Source: a virus
Lineage: Duplodnaviria > Caudoviricetes
IMG/VR virus record: IMGVR_UViG_3300021399_000102
Span: 96,001 to 160,000 of that record
Length of the DNA stretch: 64,000 nucleotides
Direction: 5' to 3' (one strand)
Shown here: positions 31,209-64,000 of the stretch, piece by piece
Layout: every line of letters starts with the position of its first letter
Numbering within the stretch: position 1 is the first letter of the stretch
Translations under genes and position numbers: made by a program
The notes under the pieces: generated by a model
Databases searched by the model: none
The model's input: only the letters and a program-made list of their open reading frames with translations
What the model was told of the DNA's origin: nothing

Positions 31209-31261
31209 TACCCCTTTGGTATTCCTATCAACGTTGTTGATACTCAATAGACCTTTGACAA

Positions 31262-36427: not shown

Positions 36428-36440
36428 TTTGCCAATCTCC

Positions 36441-38375: not shown

Positions 38376-38432
38376 GTTGTATCACATTATACTTGATTTT
38401 GCGTATGTTGAATTATTTACGCGATTCAGATG

Positions 38433-38795: not shown

Positions 38796-38828
38796 TTTCT
38801 GTTCCCTTCTTCGTATATTATACCACTT

Positions 38829-39200
38829 TTAGTTGTATGCGTTCAACATGTCTTCCATCAAGTCGGCGTCAATATTGGTCTGCCCATCGTCAGATTCCGT
38901 GATGAATATGCGTCCATCCTTGTCAACGAACATTACCTTGTGGGTAAGAGAGACATCGAACATGAACTCCAGAAATTCCTCCTTGTCCCTCTCGTTGTAG
39001 TCTGTGAATCCCACTATCTTGACATAATGTGGATGACCATTCTTGAACTTGATATCATATACCCTGAGGACAGACTTCTGCCAATTCCATTGGGACATTA
39101 TGCTCATCATGACTACTGTTGGCATTCCGTTGTTGATTTCCAAGTAATGGATATCTGACTGAGTGATGGTGTTCCAGGATATGTCATTCAGACTCAACAT
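38829..39200 (-). CDS. Paralog-array member 1
   Basis: MFDVSLTH...ESDDGQTNIDADLME. Confidence 0.75.
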   Translation of the reverse strand: MLSLNDISWNTITQSDIHYLEINNGMPTVVMMSIMSQWNWQKSVLRVYDIKFKNGHPHYVKIVGFTDYNERDKEEFLEFMFDVSLTHKVMFVDKDGRIFITESDDGQTNIDADLMEDMLNAYN

Positions 39201-39600
39201 TGTTCAATTTCCTTATTATCGCTTCCACCACATCTGCATCTATGTTGGTCGTGTTGTGTGCTGTCTTCGCCAACGCTATCTCGTTGAAGCCAATTATGTT
39301 CGTGTCAATCCATAGGATGGCGTATGAGAGGGATATGTCCATCAATTCAGAAATCAGTTTGTCCAAGTCGTTTGGCATGAAATACACAACCTCTTGCTTG
39401 CAGAATCTTCCATCCACATAACGTATGTTCTTCAGCCTCAGAATCTTGCCTTGCTTGCCAGTGGAGCGCAATCTGGATATTTGGTTCAATATCTCGTCCT
39501 TCTGGATGAAAGACGCATGTTGAACCCTATTGCATTCAGAATTTGTCAAGCTGAACATTATCGTTCCACCATTGTTTACGCTTGTCTCGTCAAATATCAT
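39184..39600 (-). CDS. Paralog-array member 2
   Basis: LMDISLSY...HNTTNIDADVVE. Confidence 0.75.
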   Translation of the reverse strand: MIFDETSVNNGGTIMFSLTNSECNRVQHASFIQKDEILNQISRLRSTGKQGKILRLKNIRYVDGRFCKQEVVYFMPNDLDKLISELMDISLSYAILWIDTNIIGFNEIALAKTAHNTTNIDADVVEAIIRKLNNVESE

Positions 39601-40039
39601 GTGGCTTCCTTGCTTCGTTGGCTTCTTCCACAACCTTAACCAACGCGGAAATAACCTCTTCGTCTATGTTGGTCGTGTTGTCTCCGGATTTCTCCAAGTA
39701 TATGCCAGTGAGGGTGTCAGTTGAGACATATCTTATGGTATATCCCTCTATGGACGCCTGAAAGAGGTATCCAACCAAGGCATCCAAGTCCTTGAAGTTG
39801 TACATATCAAAGGAAATCTGGTCGCGGAACACAGTGTCATTCCTTTTCCAAGGAACATCCTCATCCCAGAAAATCTTGTTTACCTTGATGTTGAACGAAT
39901 CGAAGTCCCATTTCTCTATCATGGTGGACAACACCATGTCCTTGGTAAACCACTTCTGGTCTTTTACCCAAGATAGACCGCCGTGGAGAAGCATAACCTT
40001 CTCCCCCTCGTACATTTCCCTGTCAAGATATTTGTGCAT
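39590..40039 (-). CDS. Paralog-array member 3
   Basis: LFQASIEG...SGDNTTNIDEEVIS. Confidence 0.7.
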   Translation of the reverse strand: MHKYLDREMYEGEKVMLLHGGLSWVKDQKWFTKDMVLSTMIEKWDFDSFNIKVNKIFWDEDVPWKRNDTVFRDQISFDMYNFKDLDALVGYLFQASIEGYTIRYVSTDTLTGIYLEKSGDNTTNIDEEVISALVKVVEEANEARKPHDI

Positions 40040-40401
40040 CAGTCTATCTTCCCCACTATGGCTTCTATGGTTTCGGCGCCTATTGAAGTTCCCTCGGTGG
40101 TCTCCTCCACATACAAGTTGAATGGTTCGGAAAGTCCAACGATTCTGTGGTAGTGCGCGATGTCGAACATGTCTCCAATGAACTCGTCCCTTTGGATTGT
40201 CAACGAATAGTCCCTTGAAATCAACTTCACCTTGCCAAGAGTATCCCTCACGACCTTGTATACCCGAATCCAAATGGCGTTTCCCCCAGAAAACAGCCAG
40301 CGAACGTCCTCGTCTGTAATTGGATGGCGTTTCGCCCGGTTGAGGACGATTAGATTCAGATTATCAGCTGGGTATGGTCTATCTGTTGGCTTGAACATCA
40401 T
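40039..40401 (-). CDS. Paralog-array member 4
   Basis: MFDIAHYHRIVG...ETTEGTSIGAETIE. Confidence 0.65.
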   Translation of the reverse strand: MMFKPTDRPYPADNLNLIVLNRAKRHPITDEDVRWLFSGGNAIWIRVYKVVRDTLGKVKLISRDYSLTIQRDEFIGDMFDIAHYHRIVGLSEPFNLYVEETTEGTSIGAETIEAIVGKID

Positions 40402-40931
40402 TTGCCACCTCCAAGTTTATAGAGGGAGTTTCGCATTATCTTCCTCTGCTCTTCCTCCACCAACCTTTCCTCTTCCTCAATGGAGGCAATTCTGATGATT
40501 TCTTGGATTCTGCCCATAACCTCGTCGTCTATGTTGAGCTCAGATGGGTCTGAAGTGCGGGCAAGCCACAACGAGCCAGAATACAACGCCACGATTCCAT
40601 GAAGGTCAGCGAGATTCGCCAATTCAGTGGATATGGTTTCCTCGCCATTTGGCAACACGAACATCTTGCTGCGCTTGTGTGTTGGCTTTCCTGCAAAGTC
40701 GCCTAAGAGAACATGGATTGTGACAAGTCCCCTCATTGGCTTCCACTCGTATTTCAACCTGTCCATTATCCATTTCTTCGACAGGAACTCGCAACCACCA
40801 AGAAGCTCCCTCTCATGGTCGTCCAACTGAAAGACATATGGATCGGTGCAATCCTTCCAAGAGATTTCAATGGCAGGAGCAATCAACAATCTCCTATTGG
40901 AGATTTGCACGTTTGGTTGCGCTACATTCAT
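40398..40931 (-). CDS. Paralog-array member 5
   Basis: ELANLADLHGI...DPSELNIDDEVM. Confidence 0.7.
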   Translation of the reverse strand: MNVAQPNVQISNRRLLIAPAIEISWKDCTDPYVFQLDDHERELLGGCEFLSKKWIMDRLKYEWKPMRGLVTIHVLLGDFAGKPTHKRSKMFVLPNGEETISTELANLADLHGIVALYSGSLWLARTSDPSELNIDDEVMGRIQEIIRIASIEEEERLVEEEQRKIMRNSLYKLGGGK

Positions 40932-41401
40932 TTCCCAGATCCTTCCAATCCAAGCTTATTGGCTATTCTGTCAACAGTTGTTGCGTCTATGTTCAATTCC
41001 ATTGGATCCCTGACCTTCCGAACCCATATCTGGCTTCCACTCATCCTGATGATGCCATGAAGGTCGGACAAGTTGGCAAGTTCAACTATGAAGTCGTCCT
41101 TCTTGTCAGGAATGGGAAACTCCTGCTTCGTCTTCCACGTCGGCTCCATGTTCTCGTATTCCCACACAACAATGCCAACCATTCCCCTCTTGTTGGGTCT
41201 CCATCCCTTGAGCAATTTCTTGAGTCTGTTCTTGGAGAGGAAGCAACAACCACGTAGCCTACGTGCTTCGTCGTCCCAAACCCTGTCCCTAACCTTTCCT
41301 CCACCCATAACGTCAATTCCATTTGGGTCCATGAGTGTTGGAAAGACCCTTCTCACCATTGGTATCAACACATTCGGCGTGTAATAGTTAGTCATAATCA
41401 T
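40928..41401 (-). CDS. Paralog-array member 6
   Basis: ELANLSDLHGI...DPMELNIDATTV. Confidence 0.7.
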   Translation of the reverse strand: MIMTNYYTPNVLIPMVRRVFPTLMDPNGIDVMGGGKVRDRVWDDEARRLRGCCFLSKNRLKKLLKGWRPNKRGMVGIVVWEYENMEPTWKTKQEFPIPDKKDDFIVELANLSDLHGIIRMSGSQIWVRKVRDPMELNIDATTVDRIANKLGLEGSGK

Positions 41402-41802
41402 CTCCGAAACGCATTGGTGAACTCTTCCAGAACATCAGCGTCGATGTTGGTTCCCCCATTCTCCGATGCTCCAACATAGACCTTGAACACATAATCGTCT
41501 TGCTTGAGCAAGATTATGGTGTTGCCCAAGGAGAGATTCGCCAAATCTTGGATTAGCGCGTCTCCATCCTTTGGAAGGACATAGATATTTTGCTGCTTTG
41601 TCCACTCTAAATAGTGCTTGTCCATGTTCCTTACGTGCCAAAGGACAAGTCCGCAATTGTTGAGATTCCATTTCTTGAGGATATTGACAATGAGCTGACT
41701 CTCGTTTACTGGACCCCAGCCCCAGTTGCGTATGTTTCCAACCTCCTGAAAGGTGAGTGGAAATTCATTGTCTTCAAGGTCATGGCATGGGCTTTGTTTC
41801 AT
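41398..41802 (-). CDS. Paralog-array member 7
   Basis: DLANLSLGNTI...SENGGTNIDADVLE. Confidence 0.75.
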   Translation of the reverse strand: MKQSPCHDLEDNEFPLTFQEVGNIRNWGWGPVNESQLIVNILKKWNLNNCGLVLWHVRNMDKHYLEWTKQQNIYVLPKDGDALIQDLANLSLGNTIILLKQDDYVFKVYVGASENGGTNIDADVLEEFTNAFRR

Positions 41803-41816
41803 TGTGCGAACCCCCG

Positions 41817-42212
41817 TTAAATTGTGTTTCTTGTCTTCGTTGCGACTATTGCTTCCATCACTTCGGCGTCGATGTTGCTTGTATGGTCTTCTGATTCAAC
41901 AAGTGCGACTTCAACTCCCATTCCCGGTATGTTGATTCCCACTATGGTATGCGTCAAGGACAACTCCGAAAGGTCAGAAACAATCCTGTCCATCTTGTTG
42001 GGCATGATATACAACTGTTCTTGGCAGAACCAATCAATGCCATTCTGAAACAAGTAGAATACCTTCACTACGCTACTGCACCTTTGCTTCTTGGCATTCA
42101 ACTTCTTGAGCAATTCATCCCTCTTCATGGGCAAATGCGCACTTCCAATCCAACGCCACATTGGATTGTCACGTTCAACCAAATAATATAGTTCATTGTC
42201 CATGAAGACCAT
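41817..42212 (-). CDS. Paralog-array member 8
   Basis: DLSELSLTHTI...ESEDHTSNIDAEVME. Confidence 0.75.
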   Translation of the reverse strand: MVFMDNELYYLVERDNPMWRWIGSAHLPMKRDELLKKLNAKKQRCSSVVKVFYLFQNGIDWFCQEQLYIMPNKMDRIVSDLSELSLTHTIVGINIPGMGVEVALVESEDHTSNIDAEVMEAIVATKTRNTI

Positions 42213-42213
42213 T

Positions 42214-42720
42214 TTACTTGTTCCACTCCTCCCAAGCGATATAGTCGTCCTCGGACTTGGCGTTGTCCTCGAACGTTCCCCACTTCAAGACGCAACCGGC
42301 GAGACCAGAGGCAATCCAAATGGGATAGCACCAATACTGATATGCGTCCCTAATGGACTCTGCGGAGAAATCAATGCCCATTCTCTTATCTTCTGGCTTG
42401 ATGTCTTTGTTGTTGTCAAGTTCCACGATATGACGGGCGTTGAAGATTGCCACTTCCCTGGGAGTAGGGGGTCGGATTTGATGCTCAGAGAACTGCTCAT
42501 CCCAAATGTTGAGAAGGTAGTTAAGATAGTTGTTGTCGTCAATGAAATGCCCGTTGAGCCAACGAAGATACTGATAGGCGTCCGGATTGTTTAGCGGAAG
42601 GCGAAGATTGTGCAAGTCCTTGTCCTTCATATAGTGCAGAAACTCCATGTAGTCAACGCTCTTGATGGCGTTGAACTCCTTGTCATCCTTCGGACGCCAT
42701 TTGATTTCAGGTAATTCCAT
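42214..42720 (-). CDS. Hypothetical protein (not an array member)
   Basis: GAGG SD; first gene after the promoter at 42754. Confidence 0.6.
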   Translation of the reverse strand: MELPEIKWRPKDDKEFNAIKSVDYMEFLHYMKDKDLHNLRLPLNNPDAYQYLRWLNGHFIDDNNYLNYLLNIWDEQFSEHQIRPPTPREVAIFNARHIVELDNNKDIKPEDKRMGIDFSAESIRDAYQYWCYPIWIASGLAGCVLKWGTFEDNAKSEDDYIAWEEWNK

Positions 42721-42753
42721 ATCAACCTCGCTTTCCTTGGCTTCAACACATAT

Positions 42754-42782
42754 ATTATCTCATATTCCGAACAGAATGTCAA
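42754..42782 (-). promoter_or_regulatory. Early promoter
   Basis: TTGACA-N17-GATAAT, TG extension. Confidence 0.75.
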
Positions 42783-42859
42783 TAGACCTTTGGTCTATTC
42801 CTGCTATTCTTCAATACCCCCTTGGCATTCAATCAAACTTGTTTGATTTCAATATCTCC

Positions 42860-43285
42860 TTATGCGGATAGTTCAAGCCCACACGCTTCCCAATGCGCCA
42901 ATGTTTGGTACTTTCTCTTGTCCTTCAACTCCATCAACCGATTGTAGGTGGAATCGAGGATGTCAAAGGTTATGTTGGTCTGCCCATCATTTGAGGGAAC
43001 CAGATGCCATTCAAGGAAGAAGTTCCCGTTGATTTTGGCTATTGAGTGTGTAAGAGACCACTTCATCATTTCTGCATAGAACAAGTCCTTGTCTTCATTT
43101 TTGCGAAGGTCAAGCTTTATTTCCTGCCGTTTGCATCCATTGTCGCAAATGTTTATTACTATGTAGCAATTCTCAACCTTGAGTTTCTGTATTTCTGAGG
43201 ACAACTGCCCCTCAGATGGAATCTCTGATGGAAGGTCTACCTTGAGGTAACTTCCCTTGTATTTGTTGTAGAATGGCTTTCTCAT
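42860..43285 (-). CDS. Paralog-array member 9
   Basis: MMKWSLTHSI...SNDGQTNITFDILD. Confidence 0.75.
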   Translation of the reverse strand: MRKPFYNKYKGSYLKVDLPSEIPSEGQLSSEIQKLKVENCYIVINICDNGCKRQEIKLDLRKNEDKDLFYAEMMKWSLTHSIAKINGNFFLEWHLVPSNDGQTNITFDILDSTYNRLMELKDKRKYQTLAHWEACGLELSA

Positions 43286-43665
43286 ATCCTAACATTGAAC
43301 TTCTTGAGAATTGATTCAATGAGCTTTCCATCCACGTTCGTGTTTCCGATGGATTCCCGTATGACTATAAGGAGATTTCTCTTTCCACATGGGTCGTTGT
43401 CCTTGGTTATTCCAATGATTTCGTGGGTCAAGGAAAGGTCGAACATGAACTTGACGAACGATTCAACCTCCTCCGGTATTCCAAAGAATTTACGATAGCA
43501 GGTTTCCTTATCAACCGGATTGAAGATGTGTATGAACAAAGATTCCAATTTTATTGCATCCAGAAGCGGAAATAAGGCGTCAGTGGTCAATGATGGCTTG
43601 TTCAACCACGTTTCGCGCTCTTTCAATGTTATTGGATTGAAATACATTTCTCGATCTATGATCAT
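43282..43665 (-). CDS. Paralog-array member 10
   Basis: MFDLSLTHEI...ESIGNTNVDGKLIE. Confidence 0.75.
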   Translation of the reverse strand: MIIDREMYFNPITLKERETWLNKPSLTTDALFPLLDAIKLESLFIHIFNPVDKETCYRKFFGIPEEVESFVKFMFDLSLTHEIIGITKDNDPCGKRNLLIVIRESIGNTNVDGKLIESILKKFNVRI

Positions 43666-44054
43666 TTTTCATACCTTTGCGACAGTGCATCAATCAAAGT
43701 CGGCGTTATGTTGGTGCATCCATTCTTGGATTCAACCAAGGTGATTACGTCAGCATAGATGTTCTCCCCCAAGTTGTCTGAGTAGATGTTCCTTCCTATG
43801 CAGTAGTCTATGATGGTGTTGTTCAAGGACATGTCGAACAAATGTCCTATAAGCTGTTCTGCTCCACTTGGAACAGTGAACGTCCATGCAGTTCCCCATC
43901 CATCGTTGGTCAATCTCCTGACGATTACGGTCTTGATGAACTGTTTGGTGTTGTGCTTGATGTAGTTCACCACCCAAGTTGAATCATAGGGTTGCCAAGT
44001 TCTGACCATCTTGTTCTGATAGAATTGTTGTCTGAATCTCTTTCCCTCAATCAC
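43662..44054 (-). CDS. Paralog-array member 11
   Basis: LFDMSLNNTI...ESKNGCTNITPTLID. Confidence 0.75.
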   Translation of the reverse strand: MIEGKRFRQQFYQNKMVRTWQPYDSTWVVNYIKHNTKQFIKTVIVRRLTNDGWGTAWTFTVPSGAEQLIGHLFDMSLNNTIIDYCIGRNIYSDNLGENIYADVITLVESKNGCTNITPTLIDALSQRYEK

Positions 44055-44530
44055 CCTTCCACCACCATTCCATTCAATTCCTCGTTCAATGTCTTGATTG
44101 GCCGCTTGACAACCTCAAAGATAAGCTCCACGATTTCGTCAGTGATGTTCGTTGTGCCATCCTCAGATTCCACCACATAGATGGTTGCTGATCTTGGATT
44201 CACCCCAAGAATCCTATGGTTCAAGGACAAGTCGAACATGTCAGAGACAATCCTGTTTATGTTCATCGGCAACTCGTATGCCCTGGTGTTGAACAGGTAT
44301 TTTGGGGGAACCCAGTTCATATGGGATGTTTCCGGATCCAGTTGCTTCACCTTCGACACGCAAACAACCCCACAGAACCACTCTTGGATTGGCTTGATGT
44401 CCAATATGTCATTCTTGAGTTGGGCTTCGTCATAATCCACGAAGAACTTTGCCACAGACGAGAATTCCCCGGAATCTCCTGGCTTCCAATAGCCCCGGGT
44501 ATCCATCATCATCTTTGTTGAACTTGACAT
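44051..44530 (-). CDS. Paralog-array member 12
   Basis: MFDLSLNHRI...ESEDGTTNITDEIVE. Confidence 0.75.
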   Translation of the reverse strand: MSSSTKMMMDTRGYWKPGDSGEFSSVAKFFVDYDEAQLKNDILDIKPIQEWFCGVVCVSKVKQLDPETSHMNWVPPKYLFNTRAYELPMNINRIVSDMFDLSLNHRILGVNPRSATIYVVESEDGTTNITDEIVELIFEVVKRPIKTLNEELNGMVVEG

Positions 44531-44943
44531 CTTGGCTTCCTTTTGTTCAATTGCTTGGCAATCTTCTTATGAATGTCCATCATCGCCTCCATCACTTCAT
44601 TGTCTATGTTGGTGCTTCCATCCTTGGACTCCTCCACCACCATCTCCAGGTATTGGGCATCCACCGCAATCAACTTGTGGGTCAGGGAAAGCGAGAACAA
44701 GTCAGAGCAAAGCTCGTCCAATCCATGACCTGACGTCATGTCGTAGCTTCCCAACATGCGAACATTGAGATATTTTGATTGTCGAACCTCGTAGATGTTG
44801 ATGGAGAACATGAAGTCCTCAACCACTTTCCTTCTCTTCGTGTCGTTGTATGACTTCTTCCAAGTGAGTTTCCTTCCCTCCTTCACAAGGTCGCTCATTC
44901 CCTTGCTGGCGTCACTCCAATCGTTGTTGTCTTTGATTAGCAT
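44509..44943 (-). CDS. Paralog-array member 13
   Basis: LFSLSLTHKL...ESKDGSTNIDNEVME. Confidence 0.75.
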   Translation of the reverse strand: MLIKDNNDWSDASKGMSDLVKEGRKLTWKKSYNDTKRRKVVEDFMFSINIYEVRQSKYLNVRMLGSYDMTSGHGLDELCSDLFSLSLTHKLIAVDAQYLEMVVEESKDGSTNIDNEVMEAMMDIHKKIAKQLNKRKPRCQVQQR

Positions 44944-44946
44944 TTC

Positions 44947-45939
44947 TCACAACCTCCAATCTGGGCTCAACTTCTCCAGCTCGTTCCAATCAAATGGAAG
45001 GTTGAAGAACTCAAGCAATTCTGTGTTCTCCTTCATTCCATTGAAGATTTTTGGTGCATGGATGTATATGTAGATGAACAAGTCCATGACATCGAATTGA
45101 GTCTCAATCATATTCATCTCAAACACAATTTCCTCGAAAGTCCGAAGATCCTTGAAGAGCCTTTCACCAAACACAGATGGAATGCGCTCGAACTGATCAG
45201 ACCACAGTTTCTCCAATGCTAGTGTGTTCGTGGAATTCAATTGAAGGACATTGACAACCCAATTGAATGTGTTAGTTTCACCAGAGACGAGAAGTTGCTT
45301 GAGCAATGTGTTCACGGCGTGGGCAAGGTAGGGAACCGAGCTTCTTGCTGACCATCCAGTTACGCCAAAGATGTCTCCAATGGATGACAATATGACATAT
45401 TGCGTCCTGGTGGAGAAGCCAAGGAAATTGCCAGCCATCAGCATTGACCTGGCGAGATAGGACTCCCGAAGGAACATCTTGACATCCCCCTTGTCTGCCG
45501 AGATTGCCTCCACGAGCTTGTTGAAGTCAACGTCTCCTGACGCTACTTTGTCGTCTTCAATGAACCGACCCTTGTACCCATCGCTTCTGAACCTGATGAG
45601 GTTGGCGTTTCCGCGAAAATTGTCCCTCAGTTCCTTCATGATCTCTGGATAGATGTCCTCTTCCACCAGGAAATGTGCGAGGGATTCTTCTGCGAAGCAC
45701 ATGTCCAATGGATGAAGAGATTCCACATGTCTTGCGAGAAAGTCATTGACCCTGTATGGATGGGCAGCAAGGTCATATAGGTCGTACACGAACGCACTGT
45801 GCTTGTAGATGTCCTCAATCTGACTTTCGTGGCTCTTAAGGAACGCCACAACCACCTTGAAGTCGGTTCCATCCATAAACATCTCGTCCAGAACCCTTGA
45901 CAAGGACACTTCTGTCGATATGGAATGATCGTAGTTCAT
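44947..45939 (-). CDS. Hypothetical protein heading the array operon
   Basis: AAGGAG SD; 330-aa ORF. Confidence 0.7.
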   Translation of the reverse strand: MNYDHSISTEVSLSRVLDEMFMDGTDFKVVVAFLKSHESQIEDIYKHSAFVYDLYDLAAHPYRVNDFLARHVESLHPLDMCFAEESLAHFLVEEDIYPEIMKELRDNFRGNANLIRFRSDGYKGRFIEDDKVASGDVDFNKLVEAISADKGDVKMFLRESYLARSMLMAGNFLGFSTRTQYVILSSIGDIFGVTGWSARSSVPYLAHAVNTLLKQLLVSGETNTFNWVVNVLQLNSTNTLALEKLWSDQFERIPSVFGERLFKDLRTFEEIVFEMNMIETQFDVMDLFIYIYIHAPKIFNGMKENTELLEFFNLPFDWNELEKLSPDWRL

Positions 45940-45972
45940 GTGCCTATTTCTCCTTTGCTCAACAACACCAAT

Positions 45973-46002
45973 ATTATATCATAAACTGGCTTCTGATGTC
46001 AA
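45973..46002 (-). promoter_or_regulatory. Early promoter
   Basis: TTGACA-N18-TATAAT, shared upstream motif. Confidence 0.7.
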
Positions 46003-46108
46003 TACCCCTTTGTAGGTATTCATGCCAACTTGCTTGGCAATCAATACCCCTTTGGAACTTCACGAAATGGCTTGGAAGTGGTATAATTGGGAATAAAGGA
46101 GAATAGGA

Positions 46109-47158
46109 ATGATTGACTTTGAGGAAGATATATTGGAGAACTCTGGAACTGGGGAATTCGCGCCAACAAGGGATGAGGGACTTTGGGTCACTAAATACCG
46201 ACCAAGGACATTGGAGCATTTTTGCCTTGACCCAAAGTTGAAGGCTCTATTTCAGAAGCAAATTGACGCAAATGACGTTCAGAACGTGTGTTTGGTTGGG
46301 GGTCCAGGAATTGGAAAGACAACTCTGGCCCTGATTCTGGCCAATTCAAGCAAGGATTCTGACATATTGTTCGTGAGTTGCGCATCTGGCGAGGGCAAGG
46401 TGGAGTCAATCCAGTCAAAGATTATCCCATTCTGCCAAAGCGCATCGAGTGGTCGCAAGTTCGTGATATTGGACGAATTGGATTCAGCGTCAGCAACGCA
46501 AGCCAACTCCTTCCAAAAGGCTTTGAGGAACGTAGTGGAGGCATTCCCAGATTGCAGGTTCATTGCCACTGCAAACTATCAAACCAACATCATCGGGCCA
46601 CTTTGCCCTTCAAGGCTTCCTCCCAAGATGTTGAGTTTCTCGGTGTCAGAGATGATTTCCAATCTTCTCTATATCCTTGGCGAAGAGAACATTGAGATTG
46701 TAAGCGAGGCGACAAAGACAAAGCAGTTCCTAGGTAGCCTCATCAAGTCCTACTACCCAGACATGCGTTCGGTTGTGGGTCAATTGCAAGCAGCTTGCGT
46801 TGGTGGGACATTGGATGTGGAGAACATCACCATCAACAACAAGGAGGCAATCAAGAACGCATTGGCTCAATTCCTCTCGCTCGTAAAAGGAGCGGGAACG
46901 CCACTTGAAATGCGCAAGGCGTACAACAACGAGATTCTGGCGTTTGGAAACAATGGCAATCTTTCCAAGCTTTACTCACCACTTGGTCTCGCCGAGGAAA
47001 TCTTGAACTACTTGATTGAAAATTACAACATAGATCCAGAGGACTTGATGGTACTCGTGGAGTACATCTACAAGATTGAGCATTCTGTGGATGGCGAGAC
47101 CCAGTTCTTTGGGTTCTTGCTCAAGGTAAAGACAATCGACTTCAACAAAGGAGCATGA
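46109..47158 (+). CDS. Clamp-loader AAA+ subunit (T4 gp44/RFC-like)
   Basis: LWVTKYRP, GGPGIGKTT, ILDELD, FIATANY, YPDMR. Confidence 0.9.
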   Translation: MIDFEEDILENSGTGEFAPTRDEGLWVTKYRPRTLEHFCLDPKLKALFQKQIDANDVQNVCLVGGPGIGKTTLALILANSSKDSDILFVSCASGEGKVESIQSKIIPFCQSASSGRKFVILDELDSASATQANSFQKALRNVVEAFPDCRFIATANYQTNIIGPLCPSRLPPKMLSFSVSEMISNLLYILGEENIEIVSEATKTKQFLGSLIKSYYPDMRSVVGQLQAACVGGTLDVENITINNKEAIKNALAQFLSLVKGAGTPLEMRKAYNNEILAFGNNGNLSKLYSPLGLAEEILNYLIENYNIDPEDLMVLVEYIYKIEHSVDGETQFFGFLLKVKTIDFNKGA

Positions 47159-48901: not shown

Positions 48902-49651
48902 TCAAATCTTCTACCCATATCTCCTCAGGAAGTCCTCCCTTGCAGCCTTTTGCATCTCCATCATCTTCTGCTGTTGCTCGTCTTGCGCCACCGGTGACTT
49001 CATTTGCGTTTCCATCCCGTTCTTGTCAAGCAACACGAAATGCGTATATGCGCAAGTGAAGGAATGTTGGATTTCATCTGCTTCAGAATAGGACAATTGA
49101 AGGTCAGAGAATGCCTTTATCCAACAGTTCTTGAACCTGAATCCAACTATGGGCTTCTTGTAGGGCGAGAGCAATGTAACATCTATGTCGCAGGCGTTTA
49201 TCAAACCATTTGCCTCTACGTTTCCAGTATCAAGTGCATTCACACCCTTGTTTACAGGAGCGTTGTTCATGCACCAATTGTAAAGCGCACGGTAGTCTGT
49301 CCAATCCGCACTCACGAAGTAGTTGAATGTGATTTCCTTGCTGCCAGGAGACATTGTATATGTCGGCCTTTCAATCTCAATGGAACGATACATAACCTTG
49401 TCAGTACCCATTTCAATTGAAGGAATCGTGAATGTTGATAGACGGAGATTGACATTTTGAAAATCTGGCCCGAGGCACAAATAAATCGGAATATCTGCCA
49501 CCCATTTGTTTTTGGCAGCAAAAGCATTTTGATTAGAAATCCCGTCATTTGCATTGACATTGATTCCAGGATACACCAACTACTATTTCCTGTTCAAGTT
49601 CCTAGTTTGGTTTGGATGTTGAAAGTGATTGACATTATTGGGTATAGACAT
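48902..49651 (-). CDS. Tail completion/tube terminator protein (T4 gp3-like), 249 aa with 3 in-frame TAG
   Basis: FTIPSI...ITFNYFVSADWTDYRALYNW...F.NCWI..FSDLQLSY pattern; ATG 49651 reached through TAG-TAG. Confidence 0.65.
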
Positions 49652-51611: not shown

Positions 51612-53432
51612 TCAATCTTGCTCATATTGGTATTTGACTTTAATGAGCTTGAGACCCTTTGCAACGATTCTGTTGTTGGCAATCTCGCTTTGAGTGAGTT
51701 CAACTGGCTTCCATACCTTGTTCCTGATTTCAATTGACAAGGCATCGGAAATTTCTTCGGAATCTCCCTCCAACGCATCTTCAGTGAATGAACCAACTCC
51801 ACCAGTATGGCTGATGAAGAAAGAATATCCATCTGGGTCGAGAACGGTATATCTCTCGGTATAGGGGAATGCCCCGCCATAGTCGAACACGCGCCATCCA
51901 TCTGATTCAGAATCAATGGACTCGTCATATTCCTCGCCCGCATCTTCATCTTCTTCGTCTTGGTCGTAGATGCTTTGATATCCAGAATTCACTGCGTCAG
52001 CCAAGTCAGGAGCATTGAGTTCAATGTCAATGATTCCAGCATAGTATCCGGAGGTCTTGACATCAATATGGTCTGCCACAATCTTCTCCCTTGGAAGATC
52101 TATATGCATCCATCCATATCCATAGCTGAATGTGATGTCAAGTTCCTGATTCTCAACCTCATTCCTCAAATCTTGCTCGGACTCCTCGTCGTCTTCCCAT
52201 TGCTTGGAATAGACCACGGTCGCCACACCACCATCAATCTGGGCTGTTGGCGTATCGCCAAACTCATGGGCTTGCCAGAAGAAGTCGTTCTCATAATCCT
52301 CTGCACCAATCTCGTATTCACTAGGAAGGATTTCAACTTTGCATTCGTAATAGCCATAGTATTTGTCCGGAACGAGCTTCTTGCTCAATATCTTCCCGAA
52401 CTTCAAGCCCTTGATTGTCACGGTATAGCCAGCGCCAGCTCCTTCCTTCACAAGTTTCTTGGATTCTTCCATGTTGGAGTTGTCCAAATGTACTGTCTCT
52501 CCCACATCCAATTCCTTCAACTGCTTGGTTGGAATATCCTTGAGACCATATGTTTGAAGGAATGCATGAATATGCGTCAAAGTAGTTGTAGAGAGGTAGT
52601 CGTTGAGAAGCGAGAAGTCTTGTCCGTTTCCACCTTCACATCTTTCAATTCTGGCAACCGGAGTGTCGTATGAAAGGAGCGTGAAACCATCTCCATCGTC
52701 CTCTACATACGCCTTGCGTCCAAATGAGGCGCGTCCATTTGTGGGTTCAAGTTCGCGTCTCATTCCCTCGTTATACCTCATTCCGAGTCCATCGTCTTCC
52801 ACCAAACCTTCGTCTGTCCAAAGCAACCAATCCTTGACTCGCTTCTTGTCCCTTTCGCTGGCTTCGCTTGGATAGACATCATCAACACTATATCCAAAGT
52901 AGTCCTCAATCATTCCAGAGAGGTTCATTTCCCCATCACCTTCGTAGATATATGAAGGAACTTTGATGTATACACTCGTTGGCAAGCCTTCCGGTGGCTC
53001 ATCACCTTCTACATCCCAAGCAACGGAAACACGAAGGAAGGTATATTCCTCGTCGTTTGCGATTCTGTCATTGAGTTTAGATTCTTTAATTTTTTTCATG
53101 ATTTTGCTCTCTTTTTTGCAGTTGTTGCGATCAAGGACGAGTTCACCAATCCTTATCAGTTTGCCAAGATATGAATTCAATCCAGCAAGGGAAGTGCGTT
53201 TTCCAATTCCAATCGCGGTTTTCAGGTCTTCGTCTGCGCCAGGTATCCCATCATAGGAGTCCAGAATGTCCTTTGCCAGTATGTCCAAAATATTGGCGTT
53301 CTATGTGTTCCCGCCAAATTGCATCTGATATTCGTACCATTTGCGAACATTCTCTATCGTCTAGTCGTTCAGTTGCATGCCTTCAAGTGGCATGTCTCGC
53401 AAGCTCTCGTTGAATCTTGATATTGTCTTCAT
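51612..53432 (-). CDS. Acidic multidomain late protein, up to 606 aa (2 in-frame TAG), possible internal head protein
   Basis: Extends 5' of the track ORF through two TAGs to ATG 53432; FNES/IKES/VKEG motifs. Confidence 0.65.
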
Positions 53433-53458
53433 GATGTTATTATTTACAATAAACACCA

Positions 53459-54454
53459 TCAAAACATCGCTGAGGCCTTTACGCCAATGACAGTTACATA
53501 TATCTCAGACTTCGCGTTCTGAGACATGACATTGAGATTGAGGTGCATGAGGTTCAGCTTTGATATGACAATCTCAATGTCCTTTGCCTTGGAGGTTGCC
53601 ACAAAGCTTCGGCAGGTGGTTGCCAATGAGTCCAAGATGGTCTTGTTGCAAAGGAACACGAAGTTCAGGGCAGTGCTGTTGATTGGGCAGATGTCCTTGT
53701 AGTTCTCTGCTGCGAACGTAATCTTGCCAAACTCCACACTCACCTTGTTTCCAATGTTGGACTTGACGAGCTTTTGGTTGTCAGAGATTGTGGCATAGAG
53801 GGTGTTTGTCAATGGGTCTTTGATTACGTCATCTTCAATCTTGGCTTGCTCTGGCGTCTGAACCTTGATGGAGCTTTCTGTGGTCTCTGACAAGGTGGAC
53901 ATGAGATCGTTGATTTCACTGAACTTGTTGGCATTGACCGTGGCAGTCATCAAGAAGTTTGAGTTCAAGTCCTCAAGGTTGGCCGTTTGATGGACGACAT
54001 TGCCATATTTTGATGGAACCAGAACCTTCTCGATGTTTCCAAGTTGGCTTTCCATTATGGCGTTCGTGGATAGCTGGAACTTGATGTTGTATTTGGGCGA
54101 GGCGATTCGGATATAGCTTGCTTTGTCGCAAACCATCAACTTCACCTTACCTGAACTGAACAACGTGCTGTCCTTGATGTCGTAGTATTTGCCAATGTTC
54201 TTCAACACCACTATGAGCTTCTTCACGTTTGGGATGAACAACGTGATGTTGTCAGGACAGCCTTCTTGCTCTTCCTCAATGTGTATTGATGATGTGAACA
54301 AGTCAGACTTGCCAGTAGCCCACTTGTTGAACATCGTGGTTTCCTTCAACCCAATCGTGGCTTGGCAACATGAAGCTGCCAAAGTCGTGTCAAATGTCGT
54401 CAATGCGCCGAGCAGTTGCTCGAAATCCTCTACCTTCAACTTGAATTCTGCCAT
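53459..54454 (-). CDS. Hypothetical protein, possibly sliding-clamp-like
   Basis: Size, beta-rich pattern and replication context only. Confidence 0.4.
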   Translation of the reverse strand: MAEFKLKVEDFEQLLGALTTFDTTLAASCCQATIGLKETTMFNKWATGKSDLFTSSIHIEEEQEGCPDNITLFIPNVKKLIVVLKNIGKYYDIKDSTLFSSGKVKLMVCDKASYIRIASPKYNIKFQLSTNAIMESQLGNIEKVLVPSKYGNVVHQTANLEDLNSNFLMTATVNANKFSEINDLMSTLSETTESSIKVQTPEQAKIEDDVIKDPLTNTLYATISDNQKLVKSNIGNKVSVEFGKITFAAENYKDICPINSTALNFVFLCNKTILDSLATTCRSFVATSKAKDIEIVISKLNLMHLNLNVMSQNAKSEIYVTVIGVKASAMF

Positions 54455-54473
54455 TGTCTATACGCCTTTCCAA

Positions 54474-55166
54474 TCAGTATGAAGCAACCAACCAAAGCCT
54501 GTCTTCGGTGTCCATCGTCTCCTTTACGACTTTCCGTATGTTCTCCTGGTAGTGCTTCACGTCGATAAAATCAACAAATGGATCATTCACCTTCAAGTCC
54601 TTCAGACAATCGCCCAAGATTCTATATCCAATCTTCTGGGAGAAGTAGCCAATCCATTTCGCAATTCCAAACTCCAACACCTTGCCATTCCATTTTTCCC
54701 CCATTACCCAAACCCTATATGGATCAATCTCCCTGATGAAGTCCCCGCATGGCTTGAGTGGCCGATTGTCCCTTCTGCACTCCTTGAACAAGTCATAGAG
54801 ATTCCAAGAGCAAGAGTCGAATATGGTTGTTCCAGGGAGCTTGTCGCAGTCGAAATTCAGGTGCGTGTTTCCATCTTCGTGGCCAGAGATTGAATCCACA
54901 ATCCACCTCAAATAGACATTGAAGTCTGAATCGCGCATCCGGACGAGGCACTTCACGAGATCTTCTGACCCCGATACATTCTTGAGAATGTCATCCTTTG
55001 TCAGGGTTTGGCACTTGTCCTTGAGTTCCTTCCATTTCTCTGCCCTCTTCTCCTTCTCGTCCCCCAAATACCAGCAAAATCCACTTTCTATGGCTTCTCT
55101 CAATGCGTAGATTTCCTCAAGGTCTATGCTTTTGGGTGTGCGAACCACTGACATGTCAAGTCCCAT
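54474..55166 (-). CDS. Hypothetical protein (MGLDM-start phage family)
   Basis: MGLDM N-terminus; AGGAG SD. Confidence 0.6.
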   Translation of the reverse strand: MGLDMSVVRTPKSIDLEEIYALREAIESGFCWYLGDEKEKRAEKWKELKDKCQTLTKDDILKNVSGSEDLVKCLVRMRDSDFNVYLRWIVDSISGHEDGNTHLNFDCDKLPGTTIFDSCSWNLYDLFKECRRDNRPLKPCGDFIREIDPYRVWVMGEKWNGKVLEFGIAKWIGYFSQKIGYRILGDCLKDLKVNDPFVDFIDVKHYQENIRKVVKETMDTEDRLWLVASY

Positions 55167-56848: not shown

Positions 56849-58231
56849 TCAAGTATAAAAATTGGAAACAGCAAGTCTTCTGCAGGTCGGAACCAATATA
56901 GTGGACTGGACCCAGTTTATCCCATCGGTCGAATAGAGAGTTGGGTTGTTTGCGTCCCTGTATTGATGTACATTCGCGGCCTATGAACTTGAATTGATTA
57001 CTGAACGAAGAGCTAACACAAACATGCTTCCAGTAAATATAAGATGTGCTCCAGAAGTCTGGACAGTAACCGTTGGCTACTGTGATGAATATTGCGTTTC
57101 TTTATCAAATGTCACTGTTGGCAGTTTCTTGACTTGTCTCCATCCAGAAAGTAGGTTTCCATTTGCTGTTTTTGTATAGATATAGTCCTATGCGACAAGA
57201 ACATAAACGCCATTGCCTTCCACTATACGCACCCTGTAATGATAATCCCATTCAATTGGTATTGAGTTCCCATTGGTGTCAGTTGGGTATTGGTCATATA
57301 CCCATGAAATGCCATCTGAACCGAGTGTTCCAATGCAAAAGCAAACGGTGTGGTAGTGCATAGAATCTATCGAAGCACCGGCACATACTATTTGGTTGTT
57401 TATTATTGTGCAACTGTTGTAATCGAAATTGGTAGCAGATAGACGATTAAGTGCGTTAGTGAAAGTCTATCCCCCATCAATGGAGAAGTCCAATTTCCCT
57501 CCACCACATGTATGCATGACCAAAAACACGTCTTTCATCTCGTTTGATACGGTTATGCGTCCGTAGCAACAATCTTCAAACACATCAGTAGTCATGTAGA
57601 CATCTGTCCCAGCAGTGTTAAGTTTAGACCGTGTCCAATTTATTCCATCGGTGGAATACCATGGACCCACGTAGTCTCCTGCTGTTTCCCCTGGATAAAC
57701 TGGATCGCACACAACTATGTATCTTGGTGAGTTTTCGTACAGTCCACCACAGCAAAATACCATTTTCTACATTTTTGTATTGCCATCTATCCAATTTATT
57801 CCATCGGTGGAATATTGGGGTCTTGCGCTGGTTCCAGTAGTATACACAGTACGTATGAACTTTCCTTCGGGTCCAGACCAGCACACGCTTGATACTGGCA
57901 ATATGCTTGCATCTTCACTATCTCTCCAATTGAAGTTTGTTTCAGTTGCGTCGCCAACATATTGGGTTGCTCCCATCGTGCTGCTATCATATCCATTTAT
58001 TCCTGTAGATAGACCGAATGCTCCAACAACAGTACTATACTATCTCCATATGGCATATAATGTCGTGTCTCTTGGAAAACCGGCTTCTACATAATCGCCA
58101 TCTTGGTATTGCACATTGATGGCGTTTTTATCTGTATTCCAACCCATGAAGTCGAATCCTGGACGAACAAATGTATTTGCGTTCAGTTTTGTCTTCAAGT
58201 TTCTCAGTGTTCTTTGTGTTTGCTTCGCCAT
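56849..58231 (-). CDS. Putative receptor-binding/fibre protein with Asp-box-like repeats, 460 aa (6 in-frame TAG)
   Basis: Continuous frame with TAG as Gln; three YSTDGINW and one FSIDGGQTF; N-terminal InlB-B-like repeat. Confidence 0.7.
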
Positions 58232-58245
58232 GTTGATATTTGTCC

Positions 58246-59151
58246 TTATGCTATCTTTATATCCAATTTAAGTATTTTCATAGTTACAACATCAAACTGG
58301 CTCTGTGTCAAGTTGTAGCCAGTTGGTCCTTTGTAGTACAACCGGATCACATTGTCTCCAGTGGTTTTACTTACCAATTTGCTGTTCAATCCTGTCGCCC
58401 CCAAAGCCTTGAATTCTTTGTATTGGGGAAAAGACGATGGATACTAAAGCTATACCACATAGTTTGTATTTGGGCAAAACCTGATGCCAAACTAACTATA
58501 TGTGTTACTATCTGCGTCATTGTTTATAACAATCCAATTGTTAGAAGTTTGGGTAATTCCAAACATTCCACTGCTAACACCACTACTAATTGCTGTGAAG
58601 TAATTTCCACCTGTATTCAGGTTGTCGTTGATGAACTATGTTATTTGTTGTGGCGTTTGGTTTTCAATCGTAACAATCCCAGATTCCATTGTATTTGCAT
58701 ACACAAGTGGTACGATACGCAAGGTATAGGAATATGACGTAGTTGTAGGATTTATTTTTATGACAGATCCAGATCCACAATAAAACCCTACATCCGAAAA
58801 TCGTGCCGGTACCGAAACAGAATCCACAATACAAGGTACACTAGTGGAGTCACCACCATTAATATTTGTGCGATAATACCACACAAAGCAATCACACGGA
58901 ATGGTAACCGATTGTTGCGAAAGTATTGAACCTACCGTAATCGTAGATCCCCAATCCGGGATATTTCCATTGTATATGTTCCCGCTTGTATTTCCTAAGT
59001 TAGATATTCCTATTTTGGATCTCAGACTTGCAATGGATACCTTCTTCGACCTATTTGTTCTTTCGCTTGTGTCTACGATGTATAGGATGTCATCGTCGGC
59101 GATGTCATTTTCCTGCAACTCGGTCATTTCACTTACTTTTATGTTTGACAT
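58246..59151 (-). CDS. Putative fibre-associated virion protein, 301 aa (4 in-frame TAG)
   Basis: MSNIKVSEM...DDILYIVD...SKKVSI N-terminus; reads through TAGs to TAA 58246. Confidence 0.65.
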
Positions 59152-59167
59152 TATTTGTTTCCCCCTA

Positions 59168-62100
59168 TTATTCGACGATTATGTTATCGTTATTTTCTGC
59201 TATTATTGGAATGTCGTCCTCTGTGACAAGAAACTCATCCCCATCGTTTGAGTCGAATGTCAATGTCACAGGATCTTCAATCCACTTTGCATACAACGTT
59301 TTGTCTTCTGCAAAATCGCAGATGTGTGCGTTTTCTCCAGACGATGTGTAGTATTGCACTCCTCCTCCATTTGGGTAAGAGTAGTATCCACCAAAGATGT
59401 ATCCTGTCCTCGTTGGTGGGGTTATGGTTGGCATTGCCTCACCATAGGTTGCTGTCACGCCTGATGTTCCACCAGTCCCGTTTTGCCTATTGAATGTCAC
59501 TGTACATTGAATGGCTTGCCATGTAGGAGTCATTGTAATGTCACCGAATGTATTGGCAGGAATGTACAATTTTTCGGGGTCAGTGCTGATCACATAAGGA
59601 CTTGTACCACTATACCCAGAAAATGTCCAACCAGATATTCTATATCCTGTTCTTTCAGGCAATGTAATTGATATGTTGCTTTGCAAACTTGAAGATTTGT
59701 AGTAGTGGTTTGGTGTAGTGAAGCCAGAAGAACCACCATTTGGATTGACAGTTATTGTATATCCATTGCGCCACCAAGCATATAATGTATGGTTATTCGG
59801 TGTAGTTACCGTGGTACTTGAATCCACCAATGTCCCAGATGAAGTGTCAGACTGGGCTTCTGTATACCACCCACTAAACAAGGTATACTATACATTGGTT
59901 GTTGGTGTTGGCAATTCTCCATATGGAGAACCATATGTAACCAACTTGGATGTGGGGGATACCGAACCATGTCCTGGATTGAAGGTCACGGTATATTTGG
60001 GAGATTCCCAAACAGCATATAAATCAACTGTCGCTCCATCTGTTGAAGTAAGATTCTTCACACTTTGTCCATTGTTGTATTCTTTGTTTCCATCTCTGCT
60101 CTTTGCCCAACCTTGAAACGTGCTGCCTGTTTTGGAGAAACCATTTGGACTCAAGCTCTATTCAATGCCATATGTGAAGTTCTATGGATCCATAGTCCCG
60201 GTTCCACCATTCGGGTTGAATCTCACCGAATAGGTGTTTGGTTTCCATTGTGCTGCAATTGTTACCTATCCATCATTCAATTCTGTCAAGTTATTGAAAC
60301 TCACTGCACCACTTGGACTTCCATTTGCGCATAGCATTGACGAAGATGTTATGATATTATTGCACGATGATATGGATGTTCCATATTTTGCGGTAGTTGT
60401 ATTCAATCCACTTTCCACACACCAACCCTTGAACTGGTATCCTGTTCTGACCAAGGCGTCAACAAGAAATGCGTTGTCAAATGTTGCAGATATGTCAGAG
60501 AGAGTCCCACCATATCCATTGCTTATATGCACAAAATATGTGTTCGCCTCCCAATTTGCGATTATCTCCATATCCTCTTCTGGGGCAATATCAGAGGAAA
60601 CAACTTTCCTTTCCAACGTCTCATCATCAGTATACCAACCAGAGAATTGATATCCTTGTCTCACAGGAATTGGGAAATCTCCAGATGGGGTGTTTCTTTC
60701 GTAACTAAACGCCTGCCCTGTCCAACAACTCCTTGTCTATGGAACATCATCCTCAAAGTAGCCCAAGTTCGTATTGAAGGTAAGTGTCATCTTTCCATCC
60801 TTCCAATGGGCATAAAGCGTGTGGTTGCTTGGAGTTGTCACTATTGTGCTTGACTTTACTTCAGAACCTCCTCCCTCACGTGTGAACCATCCAATAAAGG
60901 CATAATCGTCGTGAGTTGGCGTTGGCAATGTTCCATATTCCTGTCCATATGTCACTGACTTTGTTTGATGCTCAACATTCCCCTCTGTTGGGTCAAATGT
61001 CACGACGTAATTGTTGGCAGTCCAATGGGCATACAATGTTGTTGGTGCTGATGGTTGATATTCCTGTCCAGAACCATCTATCTCGATTCCATCATTGTTC
61101 GGGGAAGTCCACCATTTGGTGAATGTATATCCTGTCCTGTTGGCGTTTGGCAAATATATATTGCCCCAATTTCCCCATTTGGCATACAATGTTATGCTGG
61201 TTTCTGTTGTCAAGTTCTTGACATTCTATTGGTTGTTGTAGATCTTGTCCCCGGCGGCGCTCGTCGCCCAACCCAAGAATTCCCTATATGAAGTCAAACT
61301 GGATTCTGTTGGATATCCACCGTTTCCGTTGAAGCTTACCACCAAAGAGTTAGAGAACTCGTTCTATCTCAACTTCTGATATACATCGTATGTGAATGTC
61401 TGATCTTCCATCGTACCAGTTCCACCGTTGGCATTGAACTTCACGATGTATATTCTGATATCCCAATTCGCCACATAGGACTTGTTTCCTGTTGAACCTG
61501 TTGGAATGGATACTTCGGTTTGTGGCGTATTGCCATTGCTTCCTGTCCATCCAACGAATTGACGGCCAACATATTCTGGCGTAAGCAAGTCATACTTGTT
61601 TGACTCTATATTATAACTTGCTCTTGGTGTTTGACCAGAACTCCAACTTCCACCATTGAGGTTGTATGATATGGTATAGTTGGTCAAGTTCCAATGTGCG
61701 TAACATTCAAAGCTATGCTCCACTGTCAAGTCACTTGTTATTTGTTCTCCATCTTCTGACCACCAATGGTCTTGGCTATATCCTGTTCGGTTTGCTATTG
61801 GAAGCGTACCAACTTTAGAGCCATATTCCCTCTCTGAGGTAAATGTCTCGCATCCAGGATAGTTTGGATTCCAAGTGATTGTGTATGTATCGGCTATCCA
61901 CTGCTCATACAAGTTCAAGTCGTTATATACCTTCTTTGTTGCAAATACTTGATCACCATCTGTCCTTGCAGTAAACCATCCCTTGAATGTATATCCCTAT
62001 CTTGTTGGGTTTGGTGGAAGTTCCCCAAGTCTTGCACCCTGTCGTATTTTTGGGTGGCGTCCAGATTCACCATCCCATATTATGTATGGGGCCGTTTCGT

Positions 62101-64000
62101 TTTCTTTATAGAATCTAATGATATATTCAGGAACTTCTGGCTTGTTCCAATGGGCATAATATGTTACGTTGTCGTTTATTACCTTCCACGATTCGTCAAT
62201 CTTGCTTCCCTGATTTGGTCTATGGTCTGTATACCATCCATCAAATCCAGTAACCATTTCTGGAAGTTCATCCGGAATTGGAAGAAAGCCAATCTCATCT
62301 CCATGATTGTATGTCCTCTTGAAAATCGTGTCTGAACCCCCAAGACCACAATTTGTGGATGCGCAGTTGTATTTTGCAGTATGTTCATTGACATTGAATG
62401 TCACTGTATGCTTGATTGTCTGCCATTGTGCGGTATAGTAGGAATTTCCCTACACAATGTCGTTTCTTACATCAGTGTGGTTCTTTATGCTTCCATCCGG
62501 ACATTTCCATCCAATTAATTCATATCCTGTTCTCTCTGGTTTCACGGGAGGAAATGGATATTCACCAATAGTTTCGCCAATAGTCTTTTCACCCGCCCAG
62601 TTTCCATATGGGTCATGTCCAGCTGGCTTGAACATACCTCCATTTCCCAAGAAGTACACTTTGCACTTGTTGTCCTTCGGCTCACCTGTTATCTCGCGTT
62701 CTGCGTCAGTAAGTTCAGTGCACTCCCAAATATATACCTTCATGTAGGGGGGCAAGTTGTCGTGGGGCAACGTGATTTCATTTTCCTTTTTGCTTGGATA
62801 TTCAAGAGGGCTTATTTGATAGTTCCTGTTTGTGTTCTCGATTTTAACAGAGTTTCTTGTGTCACTGCTTGCCAAGGCTGTATTGACGATTTTCGCGTCG
62901 CCTCCCTTGTTCTTTGCCATCCACTCCTGCTCTCGTGTCGTTATTTGACTTTCGTTTGATGGTAGAGTTTCTGAATGGGAATGGATAGGTATGTTGGATT
63001 CCCTCAATTCCACATATTCCTCGCCAAGCTTCTTACCTGGGATGTCTATAGTAATATCATATTCCTTTACATGTGATTCATCCCATGCTCCTGGACTATG
63101 ATGTTGTATGAATACATAAACAACATTATTATATCTTACCAAGTCCCCAATCTAATATTCGTTTGATGTGTTAAATATGGATATTGTTGAAATGTCCATA
63201 TTGACTCCCCTCAAGAAGTTCTCTATTCTGCGCCAAGATTTTCCACCATAGTTTGCTATGACCTTTTGCTCTGTGTCGTCGGTGTATGATATTATGATTC
63301 GTCCAATGTAGTTCAATGGTGGAACTGACTTGCAAAGTTGTTCAGCAATTTCAATCTTCTCTTCTATGGCATCCAAACGCTTGGAAGCTTGGTTGTACCA
63401 TTGCATGAATTCAGATACTGGCATGAGAAGACCATCAAGAAGCTTCATCAACAATTCATTCATCGAGCCATCTTTGGTGGAAAGTTCCTTGTTGGTCTTG
63501 TCTGAGAATATGTCAAGGAGCATTTGCAGTCCCTGACGCCACAGTTGGATTTGTTGCTTTCCATCATAGGCTATTCTCAATATGCAGTCATGTGGAGTAA
63601 GATTCTCTTCAATGTAGTCCGGAAGCTCGCACACCATTGCTGAATCGTATCTGGATTCTGCTGCGCTATTTTGCCTTTTTCCGTCTTCGGCTTGTCCATC
63701 TCGGATTTCGGCGATTCGCTTGACGATTTCTTCGTATGTTTCAGTAGATTCAGTAAATCCTCTTATGGTTGGTTGATTTGCATCCCAATATCTGACGTAT
63801 ATGTTCAAGGAAGGTGGGACATTGTTGTGTTCTTTCTTTGGATTTCTCCAATCCAATATGTTCTGTCCCCAAAGTGGATATGTCAATGCTTCATTTGTGG
63901 CGTGTTCCAAAGGGGTTGCCTTGCCTCCAATAGATGGTCCGTATTTTGTACCCTATGCCACCAACTCCTTGCTTCCAATCGTGAAGTCTCCAATCAATTG
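59168..64000 (-). CDS. Giant virion protein (>1610 aa, start beyond window): gp10-C/collar-like domain plus many InlB-B (Listeria/Bacteroides) repeats; 11 in-frame TAG
   Basis: Single frame to the window end, only TAG interruptions; repeats VTFNxNGG...PTRxGYxFxGWY...TLYAxW. Confidence 0.8.

Follow-up and report, generated by a model that had tools for sequence, protein, structure and literature searches.

In a large phage represented by the virus contig IMGVR_UViG_3300021399_000102, TAG very probably stands for glutamine instead of a stop (genetic code 15). The stretch analysed here, hereafter the window, comprises 64,000 nt and corresponds to bases 96001-160000 of this 201,557-bp contig (45% G+C). 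The recoding was first suggested by a reading of the letters alone (the sequence-only reading), largely from repeats in a tail-fibre-like protein encoded at the far edge of the window, and the present sequence comparisons point to the same residue. The argument draws on reading frames that stay open across TAG, on the codons facing TAG in related phages and on a candidate amber suppressor tRNA encoded in the window itself (Table 1).

Reading frames across TAG

Genes were called by a codon-usage caller with TAG as sense, which gave 209 genes on the contig, three having been added or corrected by hand; unless the window is named, the counts below cover these genes of the 201.5-kb contig. In-frame TAGs numbered 113 and occurred in 35 of the 209 genes (17%). 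Forty were found in the window (41 if the endonuclease gene at 17550-18536 is taken in its long form), close to the 39 or so counted by hand in the sequence-only reading, and 36 of the window's TAGs were separated from both ends of their gene by more than 15 codons. The five positions singled out in that reading (60182, 60158, 61226, 61997 and 12639) all proved to be in-frame TAGs on the minus strand. Its central example, the tail-fibre-like frame, was likewise open across its TAGs (Table 1). This gene continues past the window edge to position 64645 and encodes 1825 aa with 12 TAGs, including 14 Listeria-Bacteroides (Flg_new) repeats (Pfam Flg_new, E 3.6e-83).

With TAG as a stop, the longest stop-to-stop frame in the window measured 647 aa; with TAG as sense the longest reached 1705 and 1611 aa, and frames of 3621 and 2586 aa appeared elsewhere on the contig. 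Frames of 1.7-3.6 thousand codons spanned 6-14 TAGs without meeting a TAA or TGA. As controls, reading TAA as sense brought no comparable gain in the window, and reading TGA as sense lengthened frames indiscriminately, which is to be expected of the most frequent stop. The same-frame codon-usage score was positive past 87% of the 107 testable TAGs, against 18% past TAA or TGA, and the original frame was the best of the three after 90% of these TAGs. Family matches also ran across TAGs, both for the tail tube (phrog_45) and for the Flg_new repeats. When proteins were aligned by tblastn to the DNA of relatives, the stops within the alignments were all TAG, never TAA or TGA. Public protein fragments of relatives stop at fibre residues 45, 230 and 497, one residue before TAG46, TAG231 and TAG498, respectively; the relatives therefore have TAG at these places, where code-11 gene callers cut their genes.

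The 207 genes first called with TAG as sense ended in TGA (141) or TAA (66), a tally that follows from the way they were called. The real test is the position of TAGs relative to gene ends, and only 8 of the 113 fell within 30 codons of an end, four of them within 2, indicating that TAG is nearly unused as a terminator. The sequence-only reading had noted no gene that needs TAG as its only stop.

It is highly unlikely that TAG is still a stop here, with the long frames representing decayed or split genes, or genes joined by rare leaky readthrough. The coding signal continues in frame over 6-14 TAGs, relatives keep these frames while swapping TAG with CAG or CAA (see below), and a dedicated CUA tRNA is conserved. 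Moreover, one essential fibre gene has 12 TAGs, and readthrough at low efficiency would be expected to yield almost no full-length product from it. On the other side stand the lack of a release-factor gene on the contig (see below) and four genes with a TAG 0-2 codons ahead of TGA or TAA, where about one is expected by chance, as if a back-up stop had been kept. These TAGs are found at window positions 12639 and 48911 and at approximate genome positions 51,766 and 82,127. In these four genes TAG could still terminate: they may represent former TAG stops followed by a second, back-up stop, or sites of termination early in infection. Indeed, before the tRNA accumulates, TAG probably stops translation. 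The TAG-TGA pair at 12639 had been taken to restore a GTGA gene overlap; the pair is present, but it is neutral as an argument, since the GTG start overlaps either stop.

Residue read at TAG

TAG was replaced by X ahead of homologue alignment. Residues 1-680 of the fibre protein, searched exhaustively against 1.8 billion representatives, gave 337 matches. The column of TAG46 held Q in 21 of 22 homologues and that of TAG231 held Q in 19 of 43 (S in 5, Y in 4), while TAG498 fell in an insertion. The gp15-like tail gene, located outside the window, has 7 TAGs, of which one faced Q in 28 of 28 homologues; Q was also the commonest residue at two further TAG columns. The conserved TAG columns were thus all Q, and the enrichment of Q at TAG columns that characterizes genetic code 15 was observed, as the sequence-only reading had anticipated for such a comparison.

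Some database homologues (e.g. P0060 / L018) were themselves translated with TAG as Q, which makes the raw column counts partly circular. Codons were therefore checked in fetched DNA. Table 11 suffices to translate relatives P0003 and P0116, whose Q residues are therefore true CAA or CAG codons. In the fibre gene, TAG46 corresponded to TAG in a 94% relative and to CAG in another, TAG231 to CAA, and TAG1140 (in YNNQ*NVKNLT, the asterisk being TAG) to CAG. Over all well-aligned TAG sites, the relatives' codons were TAG 8 times, CAG or CAA 12 times and others 14 times, the latter spread over ten residues. Glutamine codons thus made up 12 of the 26 non-TAG codons facing TAGs, against a glutamine background of 3.2% (p ~7e-12). 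Conversely, CAG or CAA in this phage stood opposite 6 of 16 TAGs of the relatives. Genes with leucine-rich repeats (LRR) were left out of these tallies, as the repeat register makes their alignments unreliable.

The log-likelihood (lnL) of each residue was compared over 42 aligned observations, with substitution frequencies drawn from the same alignments. Glutamine reached -104, followed by lysine (-152) and asparagine (-162). It therefore led lysine, the next best, by 48 ln units and every residue by at least as much; the margin was still 16 when relatives were collapsed per site. The homologue columns, the CAG/CAA codons and this likelihood all agree with the assignment to glutamine made from the letters alone.

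A sense codon for another residue (e.g. Lys, Glu, Tyr, Ser, Trp, Leu or pyrrolysine) is very improbable in view of this lead and of the conserved columns, all of which are Q. Non-Q residues do occur in relatives, with P at site 317 of the gp15-like protein, S at site 247 and K or L at site 37, but they are scattered and no second residue recurs. ARAGORN tags CUA tRNAs as 'Pyl', which is a naming habit only. Pyrrolysine was rejected as a candidate: this label was the sole pointer to it and the homologue columns were without Lys.

Several observations temper the glutamine reading. Glutamine accounted for 46% of the aligned non-TAG codons, a lower figure than the 73% at which Q was conserved as Q in these alignments; many TAGs therefore occupy variable positions. 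The two genes next to the fibre gene added nothing, as the 460-aa protein has distant homologues with variable TAG columns and has no say on the residue, and the 301-aa protein offers no homologue column (no PHROG or Pfam match was obtained and no usable homologue was found). A comparison of glutamine content between TAG-bearing and TAG-free genes was uninformative.

The repeats of the fibre protein, which had been held to name the residue, do so only in part. In the closest Flg_new pair (53% identical), Q stands opposite three of four TAGs and P opposite the remaining one, but the columns were variable when 13 repeats were aligned together and the residue was not named. The case built on PTR*GYTF turned out to be weak, its column being mostly T over the 13 repeats.

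The candidate suppressor tRNA and the distribution of TAG

A candidate tRNA with anticodon CUA was located after the gene for a 1698-aa protein (Table 1). It can be folded into an acceptor stem of 7 bp (U1-A72; G73; CCA encoded), a D stem of 4 bp, an anticodon stem of 5 bp with loop CC-CUA-AC (i.e. with C at position 33) and a T stem of 5 bp. A TATAAT box is found upstream and a terminator-like hairpin downstream; the 96% and 69% relatives have hairpins after the tRNA as well. The corresponding slot in relatives was reached via homologues of the neighbouring 1698-aa gene. In every relative examined (96, 75, 69 and 60% identity), the slot after this giant gene holds a CUA tRNA, and a CGTATAAT box upstream of it was kept in all of them. 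The element is identical in the 96% relative. The 75% relative retains this form; compensatory changes affect two acceptor pairs and one anticodon-stem pair, and position 33 is U. ARAGORN calls CUA tRNAs in the slot of the relatives at 75%, 69% and 60% identity. The 75% relative (L025 3711-3948) displays tandem CUA tRNAs, one canonical and one non-canonical, each with its own TATAAT box. An exact search for the anticodon arm in viral contigs gave two matches, both in unrelated sequence.

Among the phage's own tRNAs, the best match of the candidate was tRNA-Gln(UUG), by a modest margin; they have U1-A72, positions 8-9 and the D stem in common. Because of this match, of the shared D stem and of U1-A72 combined with G73, the candidate looks derived from a tRNA-Gln.

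Other observations weigh against the glutamine reading. The candidate tRNA is non-canonical, with C33 and with loops lacking the GG and T-psi-C motifs. ARAGORN, run with standard, intron and low-threshold settings, and Rfam detected neither a tRNA in the window nor, over the whole contig, one with anticodon CUA, and our own pattern search missed the candidate because it demanded U33. Its fold energy was no better than that of shuffled sequences (z -0.5), and support for the structure therefore rests on the comparison with relatives. Both its function and its charging are inferred. Furthermore, no gene for release factor 2 (RF2), another release factor or a glutaminyl-tRNA synthetase (GlnRS) was found on the 201.5-kb contig, which covers about 48% of the genome, nor did this contig contain any RF-1/PCRF-type domain. 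The sequence-only reading had proposed a search for release-factor and GlnRS genes; on this half-genome, it is the CUA tRNA in the window that was found instead.

Genes for a free-standing YqeY-domain protein and a PTH2-like peptidyl-tRNA hydrolase lie within 5 kb of the tRNA and are syntenic in relatives; a role of these proteins in charging or recycling the tRNA is speculative. One tentative possibility, which we regard as rather unlikely, is that the code switch depends on a rebuilt amber tRNA (C33, no G18-G19, no T-psi-C loop) unseen by standard finders, which would have fully replaced, here and in the 96% relative, the canonical CUA tRNA still present in this slot in more distant relatives, with YqeY and PTH2 possibly helping to charge or recycle it.

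TAG was not evenly distributed among genes. TAG-bearing genes included those for the tail tube, the gp15-like protein, the fibre, a tape-measure-like protein and giant proteins, while none occurred in the genes for topoisomerase, DnaB helicase, clamp loader, sigma factor and glycosyltransferase, nor in any other recognisable replication, transcription or DNA-modification gene. The heptamer GTAAATA occurred 62 times on the contig against about 25 expected. It was present within 100 nt upstream of 13 of the 35 TAG-bearing genes and of 21 of the 174 others (odds ratio 4.3, p 8e-4); it also precedes the TAG-free topoisomerase and glycosyltransferase genes. This distribution and the GTAAATA enrichment fit a model already published, according to which the host code serves for early genes and a code switch is needed for late ones. 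A host that itself uses TAG as sense, its code being mirrored by the phage, is extremely unlikely: 83% of the genes are TAG-free, including all recognisable replication and transcription genes, which fits a standard-code host, and the phage has its own CUA tRNA.

Under the glutamine reading, UAG would be translated as glutamine in a minority of genes, mainly those for tail, fibre and other late proteins. The phage tRNA would be charged with glutamine by the host's glutamine-charging system and would outcompete release factor 1 (RF1). Since the early genes are TAG-free, they would be readable by the host's standard code, and the late TAG-bearing genes would not give full-length products until the suppressor tRNA is there, which agrees with the timing model put forward by Borges et al.

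Genomic context and comparison with known systems

Table 1. Features of the window, in window coordinates.
Feature	Coordinates	Strand	Remarks
YqeY-domain gene, free-standing	13550..14002	-	TAG-free; Pfam YqeY, E 2.3e-25; 4.6 kb downstream of the tRNA
PTH2-like peptidyl-tRNA hydrolase gene	15874..16452	-	TAG-free; Pfam PTH2, E 2.5e-8
Endonuclease gene	17550-18536	-	Phage_endo_I / phrog_945; lies close downstream of tRNA and terminator
Terminator-like 13-bp hairpin with T-rich tail	18609..18638	-	Directly after the tRNA
Candidate amber suppressor tRNA, anticodon CUA	18646..18724	-	Read from sequence and comparison with relatives
1698-aa gene	18775..23871	-	6 internal TAGs; membrane and coiled-coil-like stretches; ends 50 nt upstream of the CUA tRNA
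878-aa gene, weakly tape-measure-like	25827..28463	+	3 TAGs; phrog_167, E 1.2e-6
Replication/transcription block	29432..47158		TAG-free; sigma-like factor, topoisomerase II subunits, clamp-loader ATPase, paralogue array
Tail tube gene	48902..49651	-	3 TAGs; phrog_45, E 9.3e-14, residues 35-228
Two late-type genes	51612..54487	-	2 TAGs in the 616-aa gene; 1 TAG close to the start of the 342-aa gene
460-aa gene	56849..58231	-	6 in-frame TAGs; one weak Flg_new-like unit at the N-terminus
301-aa gene	58246..59151	-	4 in-frame TAGs; open only with TAG as sense
Tail-fibre-like gene, conserved N-terminal part	59168..64000	-	Single frame with TAG as sense; 11 TAGs in the window, no other stop

The contig is classed as linear in IMG/VR, with a CheckV completeness of 48%. 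Near relatives of its proteins occur on metagenome contigs of 367-433 kb, so that the full genome probably measures about 420 kb and the contig represents about half of it. Illumina adapter remnants were observed at both contig ends (genome positions 1-12 and 201,546-201,557), with CTCTTCCGATCT at the start and AGATCGGAA at the end; the ends are therefore assembly artefacts rather than genome termini. Judging by gene content (topoisomerase II subunits, DnaB helicase, clamp loader, sigma-like factor, tail tube and gp15-like sheath stabiliser), the phage resembles a T4-like myovirus in the widest sense and is a huge, gut-type one. Deposited relatives were scarce: megablast of 20 kb against deposited phages gave no match, and tblastn of the 1698-aa protein against 50,697 deposited phage records gave no relative. 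The gp15-like gene matched only T4-like cyanophages among deposited phages, at about 24% identity. For the 616-aa late protein, no related locus was found in the viral contig collection searched. Most TAG-rich proteins could not be attributed to any family by PHROGs or Pfam.

Several genes of the window deserve further mention. Five TAG positions of the 1698-aa gene were aligned with the 96% relative, and 4 of them are TAG there as well. In the tail tube gene, the last TAG is situated 2 codons before the TGA stop. The 460-aa gene next to the 301-aa and fibre genes probably encodes a receptor-binding protein. The endonuclease gene displays a TAG at codon 12 and GTAAATA upstream, and its copies in relatives also have TAGs near the start. 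A DUF7487 / homing-endonuclease-like gene (49635-51077, minus strand) lies between the tail tube and neighbouring late genes and adjoins the gp15-like gene in relatives (L010, L012), an arrangement suggestive of a mobile element within late modules. At 1441-3312 (minus strand) of the window, a TAG-free gene encodes a 623-aa protein with a TET-associated glycosyltransferase domain (Pfam TAGT, E 3.5e-35); this domain match hints at hypermodified DNA bases.

Outside the window, a tRNA array at 182.8-194.6 kb of the contig comprises 32-35 tRNA genes. At genome positions 192,758-193,060 (minus strand), a match to group I introns (Rfam Intron_gpI, 33.1 bits, E 1.4e-6) splits the apparent halves of a long-variable-arm tRNA of this array, with no CUA evident. 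Another Rfam tRNA match (190,269-190,371, minus strand; 41.7 bits) contains an insertion of about 31 nt and was read by ARAGORN only as an intron-containing tRNA.

Recoding of TAG as such is already known; this lineage and its odd tRNA are new. Gut phages with code 15 include the Lak, crAss-like, Garnet, Amethyst, Sapphire and Agate clades; they recode late genes, with phage CUA tRNAs and sometimes RF2, and a suppressor tRNA was detected in 40% of the TAG-recoded genomes, the remaining 60% being suspected by the authors of that survey to carry undetectable ones (Borges et al., bioRxiv 10.1101/2021.08.26.457843). The accessory RF2 is present in some Lak and Agate phages and is not a defining trait. 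Proof of TAG as glutamine at the peptide level was obtained for crAss-like phages (Peters et al., PMC9523058), and TAG recoding has also been surveyed in jumbo phages. The present phage shares with the code 15 gut phages the reading of in-frame TAG as glutamine, the phage-encoded CUA tRNA and an origin in gut-metagenome-like samples, as well as recoding centred on structural and late genes over several modules; the share of recoded genes was 17% here against 26% in Sapphire. It differs from them by the size of its relatives (367-433 kb, between Lak, at about 560 kb with a range of about 540-660 kb for the clade, and the clades of 150-210 kb), by the lack of a visible RF2 on this half-genome and by a non-canonical suppressor tRNA that tRNA finders missed.

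This genome and its relatives of 367-433 kb need annotation with code 15, since code 11 breaks the fibre, tube and giant virion genes into dozens of fragments, as is visible in public protein sets. They would represent a further lineage of large phages that keeps its early genes readable by the host and places its late genes behind a stop-codon switch.

The classical amber suppressor tRNA-Gln is supE / glnV of E. coli, with anticodon CUA. The candidate described here resembles it by its tRNA-Gln-like body (U1-A72, G73), its CUA anticodon and, presumably, its charging with glutamine. Unlike supE / glnV, it is phage-encoded, has C33 and altered D and T loops, and would act in recoding late genes throughout the genome, not in weak suppression.

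A third comparison concerns the TGA-recoded Jade phages, which carry a 'code change module' made up of a suppressor tRNA, TrpRS and RF1 (bioRxiv 10.1101/2021.08.26.457843). In both cases, putative translation helpers written in the standard code (YqeY and PTH2 here) are found near the suppressor tRNA. The stop codon and the helpers differ, and neither a synthetase nor a release factor was found on the present contig. A tRNA missed by both ARAGORN and Rfam provides a concrete case for the undetectable suppressor tRNAs suspected in the code 15 survey, and, if the rebuilt-tRNA reading were true, many recoded phages that seem to have no suppressor may carry hidden tRNAs of such a type.

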